The notes beneath the pieces were generated by a model. That model saw only the letters and a program-made list of their open reading frames with translations. It ran no database searches and was not told the DNA's origin. From a virus (taxonomy: Duplodnaviria; Heunggongvirae; Uroviricota; Caudoviricetes), in IMG/VR virus record IMGVR_UViG_2703719368_000005: a stretch of 7,920 bases of DNA. The stretch is one strand, 5' to 3'. This document shows positions 1 through 7,920 of the stretch, piece after piece; position 1 is the stretch's first letter; the number at the start of each line of letters is the position of its first letter. Both the position numbers and the translations under genes were made by a program.

Positions 1-171
1 GTATTCCTGCATTAACAGAGACTGCAGCCCGACCGGGAGACTCCTCTGCGAGAGTGGGCGGGGATAATCAAAAACGATACACACCGGGGTTTACCGCGTT
101 AACGGAGCGCGGTGTTGTCCCCTCATAGTCGCCAGTCCGGTGCGATGGTGGAAGAAACTGGATTTTGTTGC

Positions 172-192
172 AAATGATAACCATTATCATTT
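172..192. repeat. Inverted repeat AAATGATAA-CCA-TTATCATTT; its core TGATAAC-C-ATTATCA resembles a Fur-box 7-1-7 palindrome
   Basis: Read directly: 9-bp perfectly complementary arms (172-180 and 184-192) around a 3-bp spacer, in non-coding DNA upstream of the terminase genes. The 15-mer at 174-188 matches the Fur 7-1-7 consensus TGATAAT-n-ATTATCA at 14 of 15 positions. The structure is certain; the function is not. Confidence 0.45.
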
Positions 193-228
193 TTTGCGGG
201 TCCTCCTGGTGGGGTGGGCCTGAACACG

Positions 229-240
229 GGGCGGGCGGGC
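229..240 (+). other. Putative cosN cohesive-end site (GGGCGGGCGGGC) of a lambda-like cos region
   Basis: ACGGGGCGGGCGGGCGCGG at 226-244 resembles the lambda cosN context ACGGGGCGGCGACCTCGCGGG as I recall it. It lies about 200 bp upstream of the small terminase start (about 190 bp in lambda). Downstream, TCGTCAT...AACTTGTTGTTTTTAATG (272-311) parallels lambda cosB TCGTCATAACTTAATGTTTTTATTT. Exact nick positions cannot be derived from sequence alone. Confidence 0.35.
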
Positions 241-279
241 GCGGAAAAAGGCGCATTTTTGTGATTTTATCGTCATCAT

Positions 280-289
280 CATCATGATG
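280..289. repeat. Perfect 10-bp palindrome CATCATGATG inside a (CAT)n/ATGATG-rich tract; possible cosB-like terminase binding element
   Basis: Read directly: CATCATGATG equals its own reverse complement. A related GATGATGATTGTGG element lies at 326-339. Both fall between the putative cosN and the small terminase start, where lambda carries its R sites and IHF site. Confidence 0.3.
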
Positions 290-429
290 GTAACTTGTTG
301 TTTTTAATGCTGTTAGTATTAAAAAGATGATGATTGTGGTTGTTTTTTGTTCGACATCTTTATATGGCGGCATTTCTTTACAAAAAAACAGAGTCACTTC
401 TGTTCTGCGGTTTATGTGGAGGGATGTAA

Positions 430-906
430 ATGGACGGCGAGCTGAAAAATATGAAGTTAAATATTAATCAACTGGCAGCCCTTTCAGGTCTGCACCGGCA
501 GACTGTTGCCGCCAGAATGGCGGATGTTCCTCTTGCACCAGGCAGTAATGAAAAGAAAAAACTGTATCTCCTGACGGATTTGATAACTTCGTTGCTGGAA
601 AAACCACCATCTTCCGAAGATGAGGATATGGATCCTCACGCTCGTAAGGCATGGTATCAGTCCGAGCGCGAGCGTCTTAAATTTCAGCATGAAACTGTTC
701 AGCTTGTGCCAGTCAGTGATGTCAGGCGGTCCTTTTCTGTCGTGGTGAAAGCGATAGTTCAGGTACTGGAAACCTGGCCTGACCGGCTGGAGAGGGACAG
801 GGGGTGGACCGCATCACAACTGAATGAAGTACAGATTGTGGTTGATGAGATCCGCGACACACTGGAAAAGGCAGTCATTGACTGTTGTGATGAGGCCGAT
901 ATGTGA
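430..906 (+). CDS. nu1: Terminase small subunit, lambda Nu1-like (N-terminal winged-HTH DNA-binding domain)
   Basis: ORF 430..906, 158 aa. GGAGG at 418-422 sits 7 nt upstream of the ATG. The N-terminus (K)LNINQLAALSGLHRQTVAARMADVP parallels lambda Nu1 MEVNKKQLADIFGASIRTIQNWQEQGMP (N-x-x-QLA...G...T......MP pattern). It directly precedes and overlaps the large terminase gene (ATGTGA at 901-906). An internal ATG at 451 is an alternative start. Confidence 0.85.
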   Translation: MDGELKNMKLNINQLAALSGLHRQTVAARMADVPLAPGSNEKKKLYLLTDLITSLLEKPPSSEDEDMDPHARKAWYQSERERLKFQHETVQLVPVSDVRRSFSVVVKAIVQVLETWPDRLERDRGWTASQLNEVQIVVDEIRDTLEKAVIDCCDEADM

Positions 907-3026
907 ATCAGGTGAACGAGAGCCATAGCCGCGCATCCGATATCTGGCGCGAAGTGGCCTCGCTGTTTCGCCCACCCAGCCGGTTACCAGTAGCGGAAGC
1001 CATCAGGCGTTATATGCGGGTTCCACGGGGAGCCAATACTTCCGGTCCGTGGGAGTCATCGCTGACGCCCTATATGATTGACCCCATTAATACATTATCA
1101 GCCCGTGAATATGACGCGGTGGTGTTTGTGGGACCTGCGCGAACCGGGAAAACCGAAGGGCTGATTGATGGCTGGATTGTGTACGGCATCATCTGTGATC
1201 CGGCGGATATGCTGGTGGTGCAGATGACTGAGACGAAGGCGCGTGAGCATTCCAGAACGCGTCTTTCCAGGACGTTTCGCCACAGTCCGGAGGTCAGCAA
1301 GCGCCTCAGTCCTTCCCGTAATGACAACAACGTCCACGATAAAATGTTTCTTGACGGCTCCTTCCTGAAGATTGGCTGGCCGTCGATCACCGTCTTTTCC
1401 TCTTCGGATTACCGTCGTGTGGCGCTGACGGATTATGACCGTTTCCCTGAAAATGTGGACGGGGAAGGGGATGCCTTCACGCTGGCCTCAAAGCGTACCA
1501 CCACCTTTATGTCCTCGGGGATGACCCTGGTCGAGAGTTCACCGGGGCGGGATATCACCGATACCAAATGGCGTTGTGGTGGCGCACATGAGGCACCGCC
1601 AACAACGGGGATCCTGTCACTGTATAACCGGGGAGACCGCCGCCGGTGGTACTGGCCGTGTCCGCACTGCGGGGAATATTTTCAGCCGGTGATGGATAAC
1701 ATGACCGGATACCGGAATAACCCGGATTTTGTGGCTGCCGGTCAGGCTGCCCGTCTGATGTGTCCGCATTGTCGCGGGCTGATTGCCCCTGAGCAGAAAC
1801 GCGAACTGAATAACCAGGGGATCTGGCTTCGTGAAGGTGAACGGGCGGCGGCGGACGGCAGTATCACCGGAACGCCACGAAACTCCCGGATTGCGTCATT
1901 TTGGATGGAGGGGCCAGCTGCGGCGTTTCAGACCTGGGAACAACTGATTTTTAAACTGCTGGCGGCAGAAGAAGAGTATGAGCGAACCGGCAGTGAAGAG
2001 ACCCTGAAAGCGGTGGTGAACACCGATATCGGACGACCCTATCTGCCCCGTTCAGCCACGGAACAGCGTAAAAGTGAACTGCTTGAACAGCGTGCCGAGC
2101 CGTTTCCCCGGCGATCTGTGCCGGATGGTGTGCGTTTTATTGAGGCAACGGTTGACGTACAGGGCGGTAAAAATCGCCGTTTTGTTGTGCAGATCACCGG
2201 ATACGGAGAGCAGGGGGAACGCTGGATTGTTGATCGCTACAACATCCGGCATTCACTGCGCTGCAGTCCCAACGGTGAAAGTCTGCCGGTTGATCCGGCG
2301 GCATATCCGGAGGACTGGGATTTGTTGCTGACGGATGTGTTCCATAAAACATGGCCGCTGGCTTCTGATCCGGATGTGCGCATGCGTCTGATGGCCATGG
2401 CGGTGGATACGGGAGGGGAAGCCGGGGTGACAGATAACGCCTATCGTTTCTGGCGTCGTTGCCGGAGTGACGGACTGGGCAACAGGGTGTTTCTGTTCAA
2501 GGGGGATGGACTTCGCCGTGACAGGCTGATTAACCGAACCTTCCCGGATAATACCGGCAGAAGTGCCCGCCGTGCCAGAGCCAGTGGCGATGTCGCGCTG
2601 TGGCTGGTTCAGACGGATGCGTTTAAGGATCGTGTAAATAATGCCCTGTGGCGTGACACACCAGGGCCGAACTATATCCACTTTCCCGACTGGCTGGGGC
2701 GGTGGTTTTACGATGAGCTGACCTATGAAGAGCGCGGCAGTGACGGAAAATGGCGAAAACCGGGCAGGGGCGCTAACGAAGCGTTTGACCTGCTGGTTTA
2801 TGCGGATGCGCTTGCCGTTCTGCATGGTTACGAAAAGATCCGCTGGCCCTCCGCACCGGACTGGGCACAGCGGGAAACGTGGCTCGTCTTCCCGCAGGAG
2901 CGTTCTGGTGAAACGGTATCCCCGGAACTGACGGCCGGGGCAGAAAAACGCCGTCGCCGGAAGAAAAAACTGTGGACGGAGCGTGCGGAAGATAATCCAT
3001 GGATAACATCAGGAGGCTGGTTGTGA
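903..3026 (+). CDS. A: Terminase large subunit, lambda gpA family (ATPase plus endonuclease)
   Basis: ORF 903..3026, 707 aa, GTG start overlapping the upstream stop. The N-terminal ...EVASLFRPPS... matches lambda gpA ...GLRSLFRPEP... at the same distance from the start. Walker A GPARTGKT at 1131-1154. Paired CPHC motifs at 1659-1670 and 1761-1772 (WPCPHCGEYF ... MCPHCRGL) parallel gpA ACPHCGEE. Size and position fit the family. Confidence 0.95.
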   Translation: MNQVNESHSRASDIWREVASLFRPPSRLPVAEAIRRYMRVPRGANTSGPWESSLTPYMIDPINTLSAREYDAVVFVGPARTGKTEGLIDGWIVYGIICDPADMLVVQMTETKAREHSRTRLSRTFRHSPEVSKRLSPSRNDNNVHDKMFLDGSFLKIGWPSITVFSSSDYRRVALTDYDRFPENVDGEGDAFTLASKRTTTFMSSGMTLVESSPGRDITDTKWRCGGAHEAPPTTGILSLYNRGDRRRWYWPCPHCGEYFQPVMDNMTGYRNNPDFVAAGQAARLMCPHCRGLIAPEQKRELNNQGIWLREGERAAADGSITGTPRNSRIASFWMEGPAAAFQTWEQLIFKLLAAEEEYERTGSEETLKAVVNTDIGRPYLPRSATEQRKSELLEQRAEPFPRRSVPDGVRFIEATVDVQGGKNRRFVVQITGYGEQGERWIVDRYNIRHSLRCSPNGESLPVDPAAYPEDWDLLLTDVFHKTWPLASDPDVRMRLMAMAVDTGGEAGVTDNAYRFWRRCRSDGLGNRVFLFKGDGLRRDRLINRTFPDNTGRSARRARASGDVALWLVQTDAFKDRVNNALWRDTPGPNYIHFPDWLGRWFYDELTYEERGSDGKWRKPGRGANEAFDLLVYADALAVLHGYEKIRWPSAPDWAQRETWLVFPQERSGETVSPELTAGAEKRRRRKKKLWTERAEDNPWITSGGWL

Positions 3027-3235
3027 GCACAGAAGAAGCCAGAGAAATGATACAGCGGTACCGTGAAGCGGAAATGGCCGTACTGGAGGGAAAGTCTGTC
3101 ACCTTCAACGGGCAGCAACTGACGCTGGAAAGCCTTTCTCAGATCCGCGCCGGACGTCAGGAGTGGGAACGCAGGCTTGCCGCGATGGTGAGCCGCAGGC
3201 GGGGAAAACCGGGATTTAAACTGGCGAGGTTTTAA
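3023..3235 (+). CDS. W: Head-tail joining / head completion protein, lambda gpW-like
   Basis: ORF 2999..3235 in the track; I favour the GTG at 3023 (AGGAGG at 3011-3016, 6 nt upstream, GTGA overlap with the terminase stop), giving about 70 aa against 68 aa for lambda W. The C-terminal ...RRRGKPGF... matches lambda W ...QRRRGPAGFYV, and the internal pattern (G-K-x-V, F-x-G, L-x-x-I) is shared. The ATG at 2999 is an alternative start. Confidence 0.8.
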   Translation: MSTEEAREMIQRYREAEMAVLEGKSVTFNGQQLTLESLSQIRAGRQEWERRLAAMVSRRRGKPGFKLARF

Positions 3236-4636
3236 TGGCAATTATTGATGATGTGATCGGCGTGTTTTCCCCCGGGTGGAAAGCAGCCAGACTGCGTTCA
3301 AGGGCGTTAATCATGGCCTATGAGGCGGTGAAACCGACCCGGACACATAAAGCCCGGCGGGAAAATCGCTCTGCTGATCAGCTCAGTAAATACGGTGCGG
3401 TTTCCCTGCGGGAGCAGGCCCGTTTTCTGGATATCAATCATGACCTGGTGATTGGTGTGTTTGACAAGCTGGAAGAGCGGGTGATTGGTGCCAGGGGAAT
3501 TATTGTGGAGCCTCAGCCATTACGAAAAAACGGGGAAATGGCGGCTGAGCTGGCTGCGGGATGGTGAAGTGTTTGCGCAGATGGTCAGTGGTGCGGGAAA
3601 CGGTCTGGAACGGACGGCGGGAGTGCCATTCTGGCTTGAGGCGATGGAGCCGGATTTTGTTCCCATGCGCACTGATGAATCCGCCGGACTGAATCAGGGG
3701 GTTTTTCTTGATGAGTGGGGAAGACCGAAAAAATATCTGGTTTATAAAAATTATCCGGTCAGCGGCCGGCAGAGTGATACGAAAGAAATCGCTGCCGGAA
3801 AAATGATCCACCTGAAGTTCACTCGTCGTCTGCATCAGACGCGAGGCTCATCCATGTTATCGGGGGTGCTGATGCGGATCAGTGCCCTTAAGGAGTATGA
3901 GGATGCGGAACTGACAGCGGCGCGTATTGCTGCGGCGCTGGGACTGTATATCCGTAAAGGTGACGGACAGGACTATGAAGATCCGGGGATCAAAGAGACC
4001 GAGCGGGAAGTCCATATCACCCCGGGTATTATTTATGACGATTTGCGCAAGGGCGAGGATATCGGCATGGTCAAATCTGACCGTCCCAATCCCAACCTTG
4101 AAACTTTCCGCAACGGCCAGTTGCGTGCAGTGGCAGCAGGCAGTCGTCTGAGTTTTTCCAGTGCGGCGCGTAACTATAACGGCACCTACAGCGCCCAGCG
4201 GCAGGAGCTGGTCGAGTCCACGGATGGTTACCTGATCCTGCAGGACTGTTTTATTGGCGCGGTAACCCGCCCGGTGTACCGGACATGGCTGAATATGGTG
4301 GTTGCGGCAGGTCTGCTGAAAATTCCGGCGGATGTGGAGATGAAAACGCTATATAACGCGACGTATTCCGGTCCGGTGATGCCGTGGATCGACCCGGTTA
4401 AGGAAGCTGAAGCCTGGAGAATTCAGATCCGGGGTGGTGCAGCGACAGAATCTGACTGGGTGCGTGCCGGTGGGCGCAATCCGGATGAGGTCAAACGTCG
4501 CCGCAAGGCTGAAATTGATGAAAACAGCAGACTGGGGCTGGTCTTTGATACTGACCCCGTCAACGACAAAGGAGGCAACAGTGCCGGAACTGAACGACAG
4601 TATCAGCGCGACACCGAAAGCCAGCATGAAGAATAA
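3235..4636 (+). CDS. B: Portal protein, lambda gpB family; reading frame interrupted once between 3485 and 3567 (N-terminal part 3235..3567, C-terminal part open from 3485 to 4636)
   Basis: The ATG at 3235 overlaps the gpW stop (TAATG). The two track ORFs (110 aa and 383 aa) overlap by 83 nt in different frames; the merged span is 1402 nt (3n+1), consistent with one extra base. Position between W and the head protease and a combined length of about 466 aa fit a lambda-type portal. The C-terminal segment NYNGTYSAQRQELVESTDGYLILQDCFIGAVTRPVYRTWLNMVVAAGLLKIP resembles my recollection of lambda gpB. Confidence 0.8.
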
Positions 4637-6605
4637 ATCCTGGTTCAGGATGCAAGCTGGGGGGCCGGGTGACGCGGATATTTATATTTATGACGAGATT
4701 GGTTTCTGGGGAGTTACCGCGAAGCAGTTTGTCAGCGAACTGAATGCACTGGGTGATATCACCCACATTAATCTCCATATCAATTCACCGGGTGGCGATG
4801 TCTTTGAAGGCATCGCCATTTTTAATGCCCTGAAAAATCAGGGGGCGACCATTACCGTGTATGTGGATGGCGTTGCCGCCTCGATGGCATCTGTGATTGC
4901 GATGGCCGGTGATACGGTCATTATGCCGGAAAATGCCTTCATGATGATCCATAAGCCATGGGGATTCAGTGGCGGGGATGCTGAGGATATGCGCAGTTAT
5001 GCCGATTTGCTGGATAAAGTCGAATCGGTACTGTTGCCAGCCTATGCGCAGAAAACCGGAAAAACCACCGATGAAATTGCCGCCATGCTGGCGGATGAAA
5101 CCTGGATGTCCGGTGCCGAATGTCTGGCACACGGATTTGCTGACCAGGTGACACCCGCTGTTGAGGCAATGGCATGTATTCAGTCAAAACGTACAGAGGA
5201 ATTTAAAAAGATGCCGGAATCCATCCGAAACATGATTACTCCGCCACGCAACAGTGCCCCGCGTGATACCACAGTGACAATCCCTGCACCGGCGGTAACA
5301 GAACCATCACCGGTACCGGCAGTGTCTGATGAGGCGACCATTCGCGCCCGCGTTATGGCTGAGCAGAAAGCCCGCATGTCAGGCATTAACGATCTGTTTG
5401 CCATGTTCGGCGGTCGCTATCAGACGCTTCAGGCACAGTGCGTGGCTGATCCTGACTGTTCGCTGGAAATGGCCCGTGAACGTCTGCTGAATGAAATGGG
5501 CAAGGAGTCCTCGCCGACCAACAAAAATACACCGGCTCATATTTATGCCGGAAACGGCAATTTTGTGGGGGACGGGATCCGCCAGGCGATGCTGGCCCGT
5601 GCCGGATTTGAAAATGTCGAGAAGGATAACGCCTATAACGGGATGACCCTGCGTGAATGGGCTCGCATGTCACTGACGGAGCGCGGTATTGGGGTGGCCA
5701 GTTATAACCCCATGCAGATGGTCGGGCTGGCGCTGACGCACAGCACCTCTGATTTTGGCAATATTCTGCTGGATGTGTCGAACAAGGGGCTGATCCAGGG
5801 CTGGGAGGAATCAGAAGAAACCTTCCAGAAGTGGACCCGTAAGGGACGCCTGTCAGACTTCAAAACAGCGTATCGCGTGGGGATGGGCGGTTTTGGTTCT
5901 CTGCGCCAGGTTCGTGAGGGGGCGGAGTATAAATACATCACCACCTCAGATCGCAAGGAGACCATTGCACTGGCCACTTACGGGGAGATTTTCTCCATCA
6001 CCCGCCAGGCCATTATCAATGATGATCTGAATATGCTGGTGGACGTGCCGATGAAGATGGGGCGTGCGGCGAAGGCAACGATTGGTGACCTGGTTTACAA
6101 GGTGCTGACGGATAACCCGAAACTGTCCGACGGTAAGGCGCTGTTCCATGCCGATCACAAAAATATTGCCACCGGGGGGATCTCCGTTTCCGGACTGGAT
6201 GCGGCCCGTCAGATGATGCGCCTGCAGAAAGAAGGCGATCGTGCCCTGAATATCCGTCCGGCCTTTATGCTGGTACCGGTGGCACTGGAGACGGTGGCGA
6301 ACCAGACCATCAAATCGGCCAGTGTGAAAGGGGCGGATGCAAACGCCGGTGTCATTAACCCTATCCAGAACTTTGCTGAGGTGATTGCAGAAGCGCGTCT
6401 TGATGCGGCAGACCCGAAAACCTGGTATCTGGCGGCGGCACAGGGCACTGACACCATTGAAGTGGCCTGGCTGGATGGTGTGGACACGCCATACATTGAT
6501 CAGCAGGAAGGTTTCACCACTGACGGCATTGCCACAAAAATCCGTATTGATGCCGGAGTGGCACCACTTGACTGGCGCGGGCTGGTGCGTTCGTCGGTGG
6601 CCTGA
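4581..6605 (+). CDS. Prohead protease (ClpP / S14-like) fused to linker (scaffold-like) and major capsid protein domain, as one polyprotein
   Basis: ORF 4434..6605 is open, but the likely start is the GTG at 4581 (GGAGG at 4571-4575, 5-nt spacer) or the ATG at 4626, since the portal ends at 4636. ClpP signature motifs: HINSPGGDV (E. coli ClpP INSPGGVI), GVAASMAS with the serine codon at 4881-4883 (ClpP QAASMGA), MMIHKPWG with the histidine codon at 4950-4952 (ClpP VMIHQPLGG). A Pro/Ala/Thr-rich linker at about 5236-5333 is followed by a roughly 360-aa C-terminal domain (about 5520-6605) in the position and size of a major capsid protein. Confidence 0.85.
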   Translation: MPELNDSISATPKASMKNKSWFRMQAGGPGDADIYIYDEIGFWGVTAKQFVSELNALGDITHINLHINSPGGDVFEGIAIFNALKNQGATITVYVDGVAASMASVIAMAGDTVIMPENAFMMIHKPWGFSGGDAEDMRSYADLLDKVESVLLPAYAQKTGKTTDEIAAMLADETWMSGAECLAHGFADQVTPAVEAMACIQSKRTEEFKKMPESIRNMITPPRNSAPRDTTVTIPAPAVTEPSPVPAVSDEATIRARVMAEQKARMSGINDLFAMFGGRYQTLQAQCVADPDCSLEMARERLLNEMGKESSPTNKNTPAHIYAGNGNFVGDGIRQAMLARAGFENVEKDNAYNGMTLREWARMSLTERGIGVASYNPMQMVGLALTHSTSDFGNILLDVSNKGLIQGWEESEETFQKWTRKGRLSDFKTAYRVGMGGFGSLRQVREGAEYKYITTSDRKETIALATYGEIFSITRQAIINDDLNMLVDVPMKMGRAAKATIGDLVYKVLTDNPKLSDGKALFHADHKNIATGGISVSGLDAARQMMRLQKEGDRALNIRPAFMLVPVALETVANQTIKSASVKGADANAGVINPIQNFAEVIAEARLDAADPKTWYLAAAQGTDTIEVAWLDGVDTPYIDQQEGFTTDGIATKIRIDAGVAPLDWRGLVRSSVA

Positions 6606-6627
6606 TAACCGCGTTATCACAATCACT

Positions 6628-6646
6628 GCCCGAAAGGGCTTTTTTT
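6628..6646 (+). terminator. Candidate weak intrinsic terminator / attenuator after the capsid gene (GCCC-GAAA-GGGC stem-loop plus T7)
   Basis: Read directly: 4-bp G/C stem (6628-6631 with 6636-6639), GAAA tetraloop (6632-6635), seven T residues (6640-6646), 23 nt after the capsid stop. The stem is short, so termination is probably partial at most. Confidence 0.35.
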
Positions 6647-6692
6647 ATGCCTGAAAAACAGCCCCACAGGGGCTGTCCGGAGAAACAGCATT

Positions 6693-7019
6693 ATGGCGAA
6701 AAATTTTGTACAGGACGGTACCACCATTGAACTGGTGAATGCCGGAGATCAGACCATCCTGAGCGGTGCTGCGGTGGTGGTCGGCAGTATGGTGGCCGTG
6801 GCCATTACCGATATTCCTGCCGGTGAGGCCGGTGACGGTTTTGCCGAAGGCGTGTTCCTGCTGCCCAAACAGTCTGCTGACGACATTCAGTCCGGCGCGG
6901 TGGTTTATCTGAAGGACGGGGTTGTGCAGCTGGCTGCAGACGGTGCGGTGGCAGCGGGGGTAGCCTGGGAAAATGCCCCTGCAAACAGCGCCACTGTGGC
7001 GGTAAAAATCAATGTCTGA
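6693..7019 (+). CDS. Small capsid-associated protein, DUF2190-like (possible head decoration protein)
   Basis: ORF 6693..7019, 108 aa, Gly/Ala/Val-rich (MAKNFVQDGTTIEL...AVKINV). GGAG at 6679-6682. It sits immediately downstream of the major capsid domain, where decoration proteins are usually encoded. The family assignment is from memory of DUF2190 proteins and is unverified. Confidence 0.55.
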   Translation: MAKNFVQDGTTIELVNAGDQTILSGAAVVVGSMVAVAITDIPAGEAGDGFAEGVFLLPKQSADDIQSGAVVYLKDGVVQLAADGAVAAGVAWENAPANSATVAVKINV

Positions 7020-7293
7020 TCTGTTTACGCGAATGTGTTGCCGGATGGACGTGGCGACCGTTCGGGTGATGGGCAAACAGGCGGAGATTAACGGCGTCGT
7101 GTACGACGTGATGCCGGAGGAAGAGTCCGCGGAGATGGGGGCGCTTTCGGGCAGCCAGTTGTCACTGGTGGTGTTTTCAGCCCGGTACCGTCCGGCCCGT
7201 CATGATGTTGTTGTGTTTGCGGGGCGCACACTGACGGTGACCCGTTATGACACGTACAACGGTAAACCCCGGATTTTTGTCGAACAGGAATGA
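7012..7293 (+). CDS. Head-tail attachment protein, lambda gpFII-like
   Basis: ORF 7012..7293, 93 aa, start overlapping the upstream stop (ATGTCTGA at 7012-7019). The N-terminal MSDLFTRM resembles lambda FII MADFDNLFD; the internal ...INGVVYDVMPEE... and ...RTLTVTRYD... parallel FII ...IRGVFDDPEN... and ...GDTLTIGEEN.... It lies directly upstream of the gpZ homolog, as FII does in lambda. Confidence 0.5.
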   Translation: MSDLFTRMCCRMDVATVRVMGKQAEINGVVYDVMPEEESAEMGALSGSQLSLVVFSARYRPARHDVVVFAGRTLTVTRYDTYNGKPRIFVEQE

Positions 7294-7295
7294 GT

Positions 7296-7919
7296 ATGGC
7301 AATAAAAGGTCTGGCGCAGGCCATGAAAAATCTGGATGCAATTGATCGCCGTGCCGTTCCCCGGGCCTCTGCCACGACACTGAACCGAGTGGCGGGGGCC
7401 ATTATTGCGAAAACGGCCTCTTCAGTTGCCAGGGAGCTGGCCGTTCCCCGTCGTCTTATCCGTGCCCGCATCCGGTTAAGTCCGGCACGACCGGATAAGG
7501 TTTACGCAAAGGTTTACATCAATACCGGCAACCTGCCCGCCATCAAACTGGGGGAGGCCCGCGTTCGACTTTCCCGCAGAAAACGGAGAAAGAAAGGACA
7601 GCGTGCGGCCCTGAAAGGGGGCGGCAGTGTGCTGATTGTGGGGAAAAGACGGATCCCGGACGCCTTTATCACCCGGCTGGCTAACGGACGCTGGCATGTG
7701 ATGCAGCGTATGCCGTGGGCATCATCATCCACCGGCGCGGACAGCAAAGGGAGGCCGAAACGCCACCGTCTGCCGATCGAAGTGGTGAAGATTACGACTG
7801 CCGGACCGCTGGCAGAAACCTTTGAACGTGAACGGGACCGGATGTACCGGGAAAAATTACCGGCGCAGATGATGAAAGCCATGACGCATCAGTTACGCCT
7901 GGTGCTGAAAAGAAAATGA
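7296..7919 (+). CDS. Z: Tail completion / minor tail protein, lambda gpZ-like
   Basis: ORF 7290..7919 in the track; the ATG at 7296 has AGGA 6 nt upstream and gives an N-terminus MAIKGLAQAMKNL matching lambda Z MAIKGLEQAVENL. Strong collinear similarity to lambda Z as I recall it: LSRRKRRKKGQRAALKGGGSVLIVGKRRIPDAFITRLANGRWHVMQR against LSRRRRRKKGQRSSLKGGGSVLVVGNRRIPGAFIQQLKNGRWHVMQR. Stop TGA at 7917-7919. Confidence 0.9.
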   Translation: MAIKGLAQAMKNLDAIDRRAVPRASATTLNRVAGAIIAKTASSVARELAVPRRLIRARIRLSPARPDKVYAKVYINTGNLPAIKLGEARVRLSRRKRRKKGQRAALKGGGSVLIVGKRRIPDAFITRLANGRWHVMQRMPWASSSTGADSKGRPKRHRLPIEVVKITTAGPLAETFERERDRMYREKLPAQMMKAMTHQLRLVLKRK

Positions 7920-7920
7920 C

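Follow-up and report, generated by a model that had tools for sequence, protein, structure and literature searches.

The portal gene within the head module

The locus studied here raises the question of why the portal gene of a prophage lies in two overlapping reading frames, and whether this break is real. The window, i.e. the whole stretch of 7,920 nucleotides that was analysed, was identified by profile search, ORF listing and megablast as the head module of a lambdoid E. coli prophage of the Sp15/VT1-Sakai type. The original prediction, made from this sequence, had located a single break near homopolymer runs and had offered two readings, namely a sequencing artefact in an intact gene or an inactivating mutation marking a decaying, cryptic prophage. 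We conclude that the portal gene has very probably been broken by a genuine and recurrent 101-bp deletion with its endpoints in the direct repeat CTGGCTGCGG; the deletion would have arisen by slipped mispairing.

The gene order of the window is as follows. A DUF1441 gene (430-906, from profile and ORF calls) precedes the intact gene for the large terminase subunit (903-3026, plus strand; WP_001077626.1), whose profile match comprises the gpA ATPase and nuclease domains. A small gpW-like head-tail joining gene (3023-3235, plus strand) lies directly 5' of the broken portal gene (3235-4636, plus strand), the 3' end of which is overlapped by the intact gene for a fusion of a ClpP-like prohead protease and the major capsid protein (4626-6605, plus strand; WP_000792357.1). 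The genes for a cement protein (DUF2190, 6693-7019) and a Gifsy-2-type gene (7012-7293) follow. The broken portal gene is thus positioned between the large terminase and gpW-like genes on one side and the prohead protease-capsid gene on the other, as is the case for lambda-family portals. The terminase and the capsid fusion have the same accessions in strain ERL05-1306 and in NZRM4165, the intact twin of the window, and the remaining genes of the window are the same as in the intact twins described below.

Two further observations concern the flanks of this gene array. The ORF of the protease/capsid fusion is open from a GTG at 4434, giving an overlap of about 200 nt with the 3' end of the portal gene (4434-4636), and its predicted starts differ: 659 aa are predicted by PGAP, with the start at 4626, and 674 aa by the gene calls for the Logan contigs, with the start near 4581. 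The DUF1441 gene is preceded by a non-coding, G-rich stretch (225-265; GGGGCGGGCGGGCGCGG...), which is possibly the cos region. At positions 237 and 261, this stretch differs from NZRM4165 by single-G length changes; no other indel of the homopolymer type was seen in the window.

Two portal fragments and the missing segment

The reading frames proved to be as originally described. The upstream ORF (3235-3567) encodes 110 amino acids, the second frame is open from 3485 to 4636 (383 aa if counted from a TTG), the two share 83 nt, and the merged span 3235-4636 comprises 1402 nt, i.e. 3n+1. Both ORFs match the Pfam family PF05136 (Phage_portal_2) above its gathering cut-off of 32.9 bits: residues 35-106 of the upstream ORF correspond to profile positions 3-74 (36.5 bits), and residues 21-253 of the downstream ORF correspond to positions 108-354 (187.1 bits). 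The homology therefore changes frame after position 74, resumes at position 108 and is not confined to the downstream ORF, which confirms the view that a single portal gene has been broken once. Positions 75-107 are absent from both fragments, and a continuous ORF over the whole profile, about 500 aa long in close homologs, is not present in the window. Two frames together with this gap identify the gene as a pseudogene of the PF05136 family. Moreover, because 33 profile positions are missing, a single-base indel cannot account for the break; the expectation that one base fewer in a homopolymer would restore an intact portal had to be abandoned, as 33 profile positions, or 101 nt, are lacking between the frames.

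At the level of codons, the 5' fragment (3235-3567, plus strand) consists of 108 native codons (M1-A108) followed by the out-of-frame codons GGA TGG TGA, which specify G, W and a stop. Across the junction the upstream frame reads CTG GCT GCG GGA TGG TGA (L A A G W stop), so that the fragment ends in ...EMAAELAAGW, where the intact protein continues with ...EMAAELAADIRRLW...; the premature TGA (3565-3567, plus strand) is a product of the frameshift and lies two codons past the junction. The 361 native codons from W140 to E500 run in the shifted frame from position 3551. The first six of these (W140, L, R, D, G, E; 3551-3568, plus strand) overlap with the end of the 5' fragment at nucleotides 3551-3567, and the others extend from 3569 to 4636 (plus strand), to the native E500 and the stop codon. 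Gene callers begin an ORF of 355 aa at a GTG at 3569, which starts 1 nt past the TGA stop (TGA-A-GTG, 3565-3571), and this 355-aa product is called in all deleted contigs. No Shine-Dalgarno sequence is visible at normal spacing before this GTG. Among solved portal structures, on which the lost residues could have been placed, the search gave one weak hit of limited coverage (8vhx_D, E-value 4.6e-07), which is mainly C-terminal and did not permit such a placement.

A clean 101-bp deletion bounded by direct repeats

A megablast comparison of window positions 3100-4700 with phage records gave twelve near-identical matches, each of which falls into two pieces spanning 101 extra bases; the identities were 100.0% for VT1-Sakai and 99.8% for ASU11. 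In these phage records the intact portal is a single, continuous gene of 1503 nt encoding 500 aa and not two separate genes. A three-way alignment contains one clean gap of 101 columns and otherwise no difference in 300 nt. The runs A6 (3525-3530), G4 (3532-3535) and G3 (3558-3560), which the original prediction had correctly located and had named as typical sites of indels or slippage, are unchanged in the intact homologs. The switch does lie inside the 83-nt overlap, at positions 3550-3559, and its cause is the missing segment.

In the intact genes, the gap is bordered on both sides by the exact 10-bp direct repeat CTGGCTGCGG, whose first copy begins at gene position 316 (codon phase 0) and whose second begins at position 417 (codon phase 2). 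The sole remaining copy in the window (3550-3559, plus strand) constitutes the deletion junction. The length of the deletion equals the repeat spacing of 101 nt, and the lost sequence consists of one repeat copy plus the 91 bp between the copies. The frame shifts because the two copies differ in codon phase, 101 being 3n+2. The repeat is part of a longer, imperfect one: in the intact VT1-Sakai gene, GCGGCTGAGCTGGCTGCGG and GCTGCGGACCTGGCTGCGG are identical at 16 of 19 positions and are 101 nt apart, start to start; the surviving copy of this 19-nt repeat occupies positions 3541-3559 (plus strand). The CTGGCTGCGG pair is the top-ranked direct repeat of the intact portal gene. A 10-mer direct repeat within 400 nt is also contained in 49% of codon-shuffled versions of the gene, so that a 10-bp repeat is not unusual in itself.

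Distribution of deleted and intact alleles

Of 5426 complete E. coli genomes, 537 carry the intact portal region, which was recognized by its two-piece matches; there are up to four copies of the region per STEC genome. For the deleted allele, we used a 44-nt junction query, which was built such that intact alleles cannot seed a match. Among the complete E. coli genomes it matches only ERL05-1306 (NZ_CP032803.1), which was isolated from diced lamb in New Zealand; this corresponds to one of 758 places. Neither the viral contigs of IMG/VR nor the phage collection of GenBank gave a match to it. In ERL05-1306, the gene carries the PGAP label "phage portal protein, frameshifted", i.e. RefSeq has already flagged the allele in the one finished genome having it. 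Searches of the literature for the strain name, a 101-bp portal deletion and portal frameshifts in O157 returned no description of the deletion allele or of its recurrence.

A second way of detecting the allele relies on its product: a 110-aa protein ending in AAGW is possible only with the 101-bp deletion. This product is encoded on 23 contigs from independent public samples of the ERR, SRR, DRR and ERZ series, among them ERR2933002, SRR32481857, DRR588999, SRR7842040, several runs of the form SRR360xxxxx, and ERZ18534387. The 101 bp are absent from all nine of nine loci among the matches listed. In the protein collection, the 110-aa fragment was found on 12 contigs, and the four intact variants that were queried were found on at least 1000, at least 1000, 508 and 17 contigs. 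The deletion is a genuine and rare allele.

The window is identical to ERL05-1306 over positions 1-6929. In the last 990 nt (6930-7920; 23398-24388 in ERL05-1306), there are 71 differences, which begin inside the cement-protein (DUF2190) gene; the window therefore stems from a record other than ERL05-1306. The breakpoint near position 6930 looks like a recombination between two prophages with the same deleted portal allele. Two observations were made on the ERL05-1306 prophage outside the window. Stx phages carry stx between the Q antiterminator/tRNA-Arg pair and the position of the DUF6645 gene. In the ERL05-1306 prophage (9136-13835), no stx is annotated in this interval, which holds only about 485 nt and a partial hypothetical gene; this prophage therefore appears to be stx-negative. 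Its gene labelled 'Tail assembly protein T, incomplete' is probably no defect but a case of the usual G/GT programmed frameshift.

Recurrence on separate prophage haplotypes

In an alignment of 1.7 kb, all deleted alleles lack exactly the same 101 columns, yet 15-30 sites differ between them. The deletion is present on four prophage haplotypes, each of which has an intact twin 0-11 substitutions away over about 8 kb. Apart from the gap, the DRR588999 contig has no difference from the prophage of strain 88-3493 in 8128 nt (100.000% identity), the SRR32481857 contig has three mismatches to PV0838 in 8211 nt, and the ERR2933002 contig has 11 mismatches to EAEC 55989 in 8214 nt. For the window, comparison with NZRM4165 gave five SNPs and the two 1-nt indels in the non-coding G-runs besides the gap in 7920 nt; NZRM4165, the closest full-length relative of the window, is also from New Zealand. 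Compared crosswise, SRR32481857 and DRR588999 each have about 150 mismatches to the intact twin of the other. Since the contigs match one known prophage over their full length, chimeric assembly is ruled out as the source of the haplotypes.

At window position 3546, at a distance of just 4 nt from the repeat of the junction, the haplotype of ERR2933002 and ERZ18534387 has an A that is common to its intact relatives. The deletion in this haplotype was therefore not imported from the window haplotype by homologous exchange or gene conversion. Judged from these alignments, at least two independent origins of the deletion are secure, and there were probably four. The recurrence on separate haplotypes suggests that the CTGGCTGCGG pair is a mutational hot spot.

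Proposed mechanism

It is well established that deletions arise by slipped-strand mispairing at short direct repeats (PMC6054270), and the footprint of this mechanism is present in full: each endpoint falls within a copy of a direct repeat, of which one copy is kept, the length equals the spacing, and the event recurs. We propose that replication slippage took place between the CTGGCTGCGG copies, which are 101 bp apart in the 1503-nt gene, and that it would have removed one copy plus the 91 bp between them and kept the other copy. The resulting shift by 101 bp (3n+2) leads to a stop two codons later and to the 110-aa N-terminal fragment; about 33 conserved codons are lost outright and the remaining 361 native codons are out of frame.

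A hairpin that would unite the repeats was not found when the intact 141-nt interval was folded as DNA: the z values against shuffled sequences were 0.43 and -0.36 for the two strands. Beyond the 16/19 repeat, nothing was found that explains the preference for the 101-bp site. The portal gene has two other comparable repeat pairs, one of 11 bp spaced 33 nt and one of 10 bp spaced 246 nt, and deletions between these copies would be in-frame. The predicted products of the 33-nt and 246-nt deletions, computed for three haplotypes, are absent from a collection of 15 billion proteins; this look-up needs exact full-length identity and is less sensitive than that of the 110-aa fragment. A purely mutational model predicts at least occasional deletions at these two pairs, and the contrast of four events at the 101-bp site with none at the comparable ones is only suggestive. 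In the window, the 11-bp exact repeat is GGTGATTGGTG (3447-3457 and 3480-3490, in the 5' part of the portal gene), and slippage between its copies would give an in-frame deletion of 11 codons.

Alternative explanations

The proximity of the break to homopolymers and the presence of the allele in only one complete genome would fit a one-base miscount in the A6, G4 or G3 run of a gene that is really intact. However, these runs are the same in the intact homologs, where the 101-bp gap is the sole difference, a one-base correction leaves 33 profile positions missing, and the junction is found on 23 contigs of independent runs as well as in a finished genome. We regard a sequencing or assembly artefact, the first of the two readings originally offered, as extremely improbable. 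Just as little speaks for a break that is functional, be it a programmed frameshift, which had been judged unlikely from the outset, or a split portal of 110 aa plus 355 aa, made by termination-reinitiation at the TGA-A-GTG of positions 3565-3571. It is true that a single nucleotide separates the stop from the GTG, that gene callers predict both ORFs, and that the allele persists in a number of isolates. Yet the homologs carry one continuous ORF of 500 aa, so that the two-frame layout is not conserved, about 33 conserved residues occur in neither product, and the GTG at 3569 is not preceded by a Shine-Dalgarno sequence at normal spacing. Furthermore, the allele is rare (12-23 contigs compared with at least 1000 for each of two intact variants; one of 758 places), and each deleted allele is near-identical to an intact twin, so that none is long-lived. 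There is hardly any chance that the break is functional.

The two other alternatives accept the deletion and concern its recurrence. One ancient deleted allele could have been spread among prophages by homologous recombination or gene conversion, given that STEC genomes have up to four copies of the portal region, that lambdoid prophages recombine freely, and that the window itself is mosaic relative to ERL05-1306 past position 6929. In SRR32481857 and DRR588999, the nearest distinguishing SNPs are more than 100 nt from the junction and a short conversion tract is conceivable; in ERR2933002 and ERZ18534387, however, the SNP at 3546 restricts the homology on the left-hand side to the repeat and 3 nt next to it. 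Over the full 8 kb, three of the deleted contigs match their intact twins exactly or almost exactly, and a spread would have needed very short conversion tracts every time, with no co-converted SNP; we therefore rate it as quite improbable. Alternatively, the recurrence might reflect selection for portal inactivation, i.e. prophage domestication, beyond a mutational hot spot: the same frameshifting deletion was found at least four times, whereas the two comparable in-frame repeat deletions were found zero times. This difference of four versus none is statistically weak, the look-up of the in-frame products was less sensitive, and the allele stays rare. In addition, a portal defect spares the lysis genes, so it should not shield the host cell from lysis on induction, which argues against selection. 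We consider selection unlikely. There is similarly little likelihood that a parallel knock-out of the portal at this exact site is favoured in STEC lysogens, for example because it grounds the prophage yet keeps its lysis and cargo genes, or that an unrecognised feature makes the site far more deletion-prone than the two equivalent pairs. The preferred reading is a repeat-mediated deletion whose recurrence would be mutational in nature.

Comparison with known systems

The deletion hot spots in lacI of E. coli are the textbook parallel for deletions between direct repeats. The portal deletion resembles them in that both endpoints fall within a direct repeat that leaves one copy behind, the length equals the spacing, the event recurs independently, and a 10-nt exact core is embedded in a longer imperfect repeat (16/19). 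Unlike the lacI-type hot spots, it was seen in natural prophage populations and not in a selected reporter gene. For deletions between short direct repeats by slipped-strand mispairing, PMC6054270 cites Levinson and Gutman (1987).

With the defective lambdoid prophages of O157 Sakai (Sp1-Sp18; PMC2669165), the window shares the family of the head module and the inactivation of an essential morphogenesis gene in an otherwise intact module. If the deletion and the IS insertion of Sp15 are disregarded, its identity to Sp15 (VT1-Sakai) amounts to 99.9%. The lesions are different: in Sp15, IS629 (IS1203) is inserted in the protease/capsid gene and the portal is intact, whereas the window has a damaged portal gene and an undamaged capsid gene. 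The IS629 (IS1203) insertion in the ClpP-protease/capsid fusion also occurs in EDL933 and related O157 strains; it occupies positions 6000-7309 of VT1-Sakai, which corresponds to window position ~5500, and is a separate lesion in the same module. As to lambda-family gpB (PF05136), the likeness comprises the match of both fragments to the family and the order of large terminase subunit, gpW-like gene, portal gene and prohead protease/capsid gene; unlike gpB, the copy in the window is split over two frames and lacks profile positions 75-107.

Consequences for the prophage

As judged from its coding capacity, this prophage would no longer be able to make its own portal or to package DNA, unless a co-resident prophage supplies the portal in trans. 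The expected products are a 110-aa N-terminal stub and, at best, an inefficiently initiated C-terminal piece of 355 aa starting from the GTG at 3569. Because the rest of the 7.9-kb head module nearly matches the intact twin NZRM4165, the lesion appears to be recent and isolated and not a sign of advanced decay. Of the second reading originally offered, the real, inactivating mutation has thus held up, and the notion of a decaying, cryptic prophage was overstated in view of only five SNPs and two 1-nt indels relative to NZRM4165. Defects in portal and head functions are frequent in the lambdoid prophages of O157 Sakai, and the prophages concerned are still packaged with the help of co-resident ones (PMC2669165); by analogy, the broken portal studied here may possibly be complemented in trans.

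For annotation, it matters that a portal labelled "frameshifted" is neither to be repaired by adjusting a homopolymer nor to be mistaken for an error of sequencing. Taken alone, the prophage is best classed as packaging-defective, with the provision that trans-complementation is documented in O157 (PMC2669165), and the junction sequence GAGCTGGCTGCGGGATGG provides a simple marker of the deleted allele. Within the field of prophage decay, the locus illustrates on a small scale how a repeat-mediated deletion recurs in nature; it represents an ordinary route of prophage gene death and no new biology.
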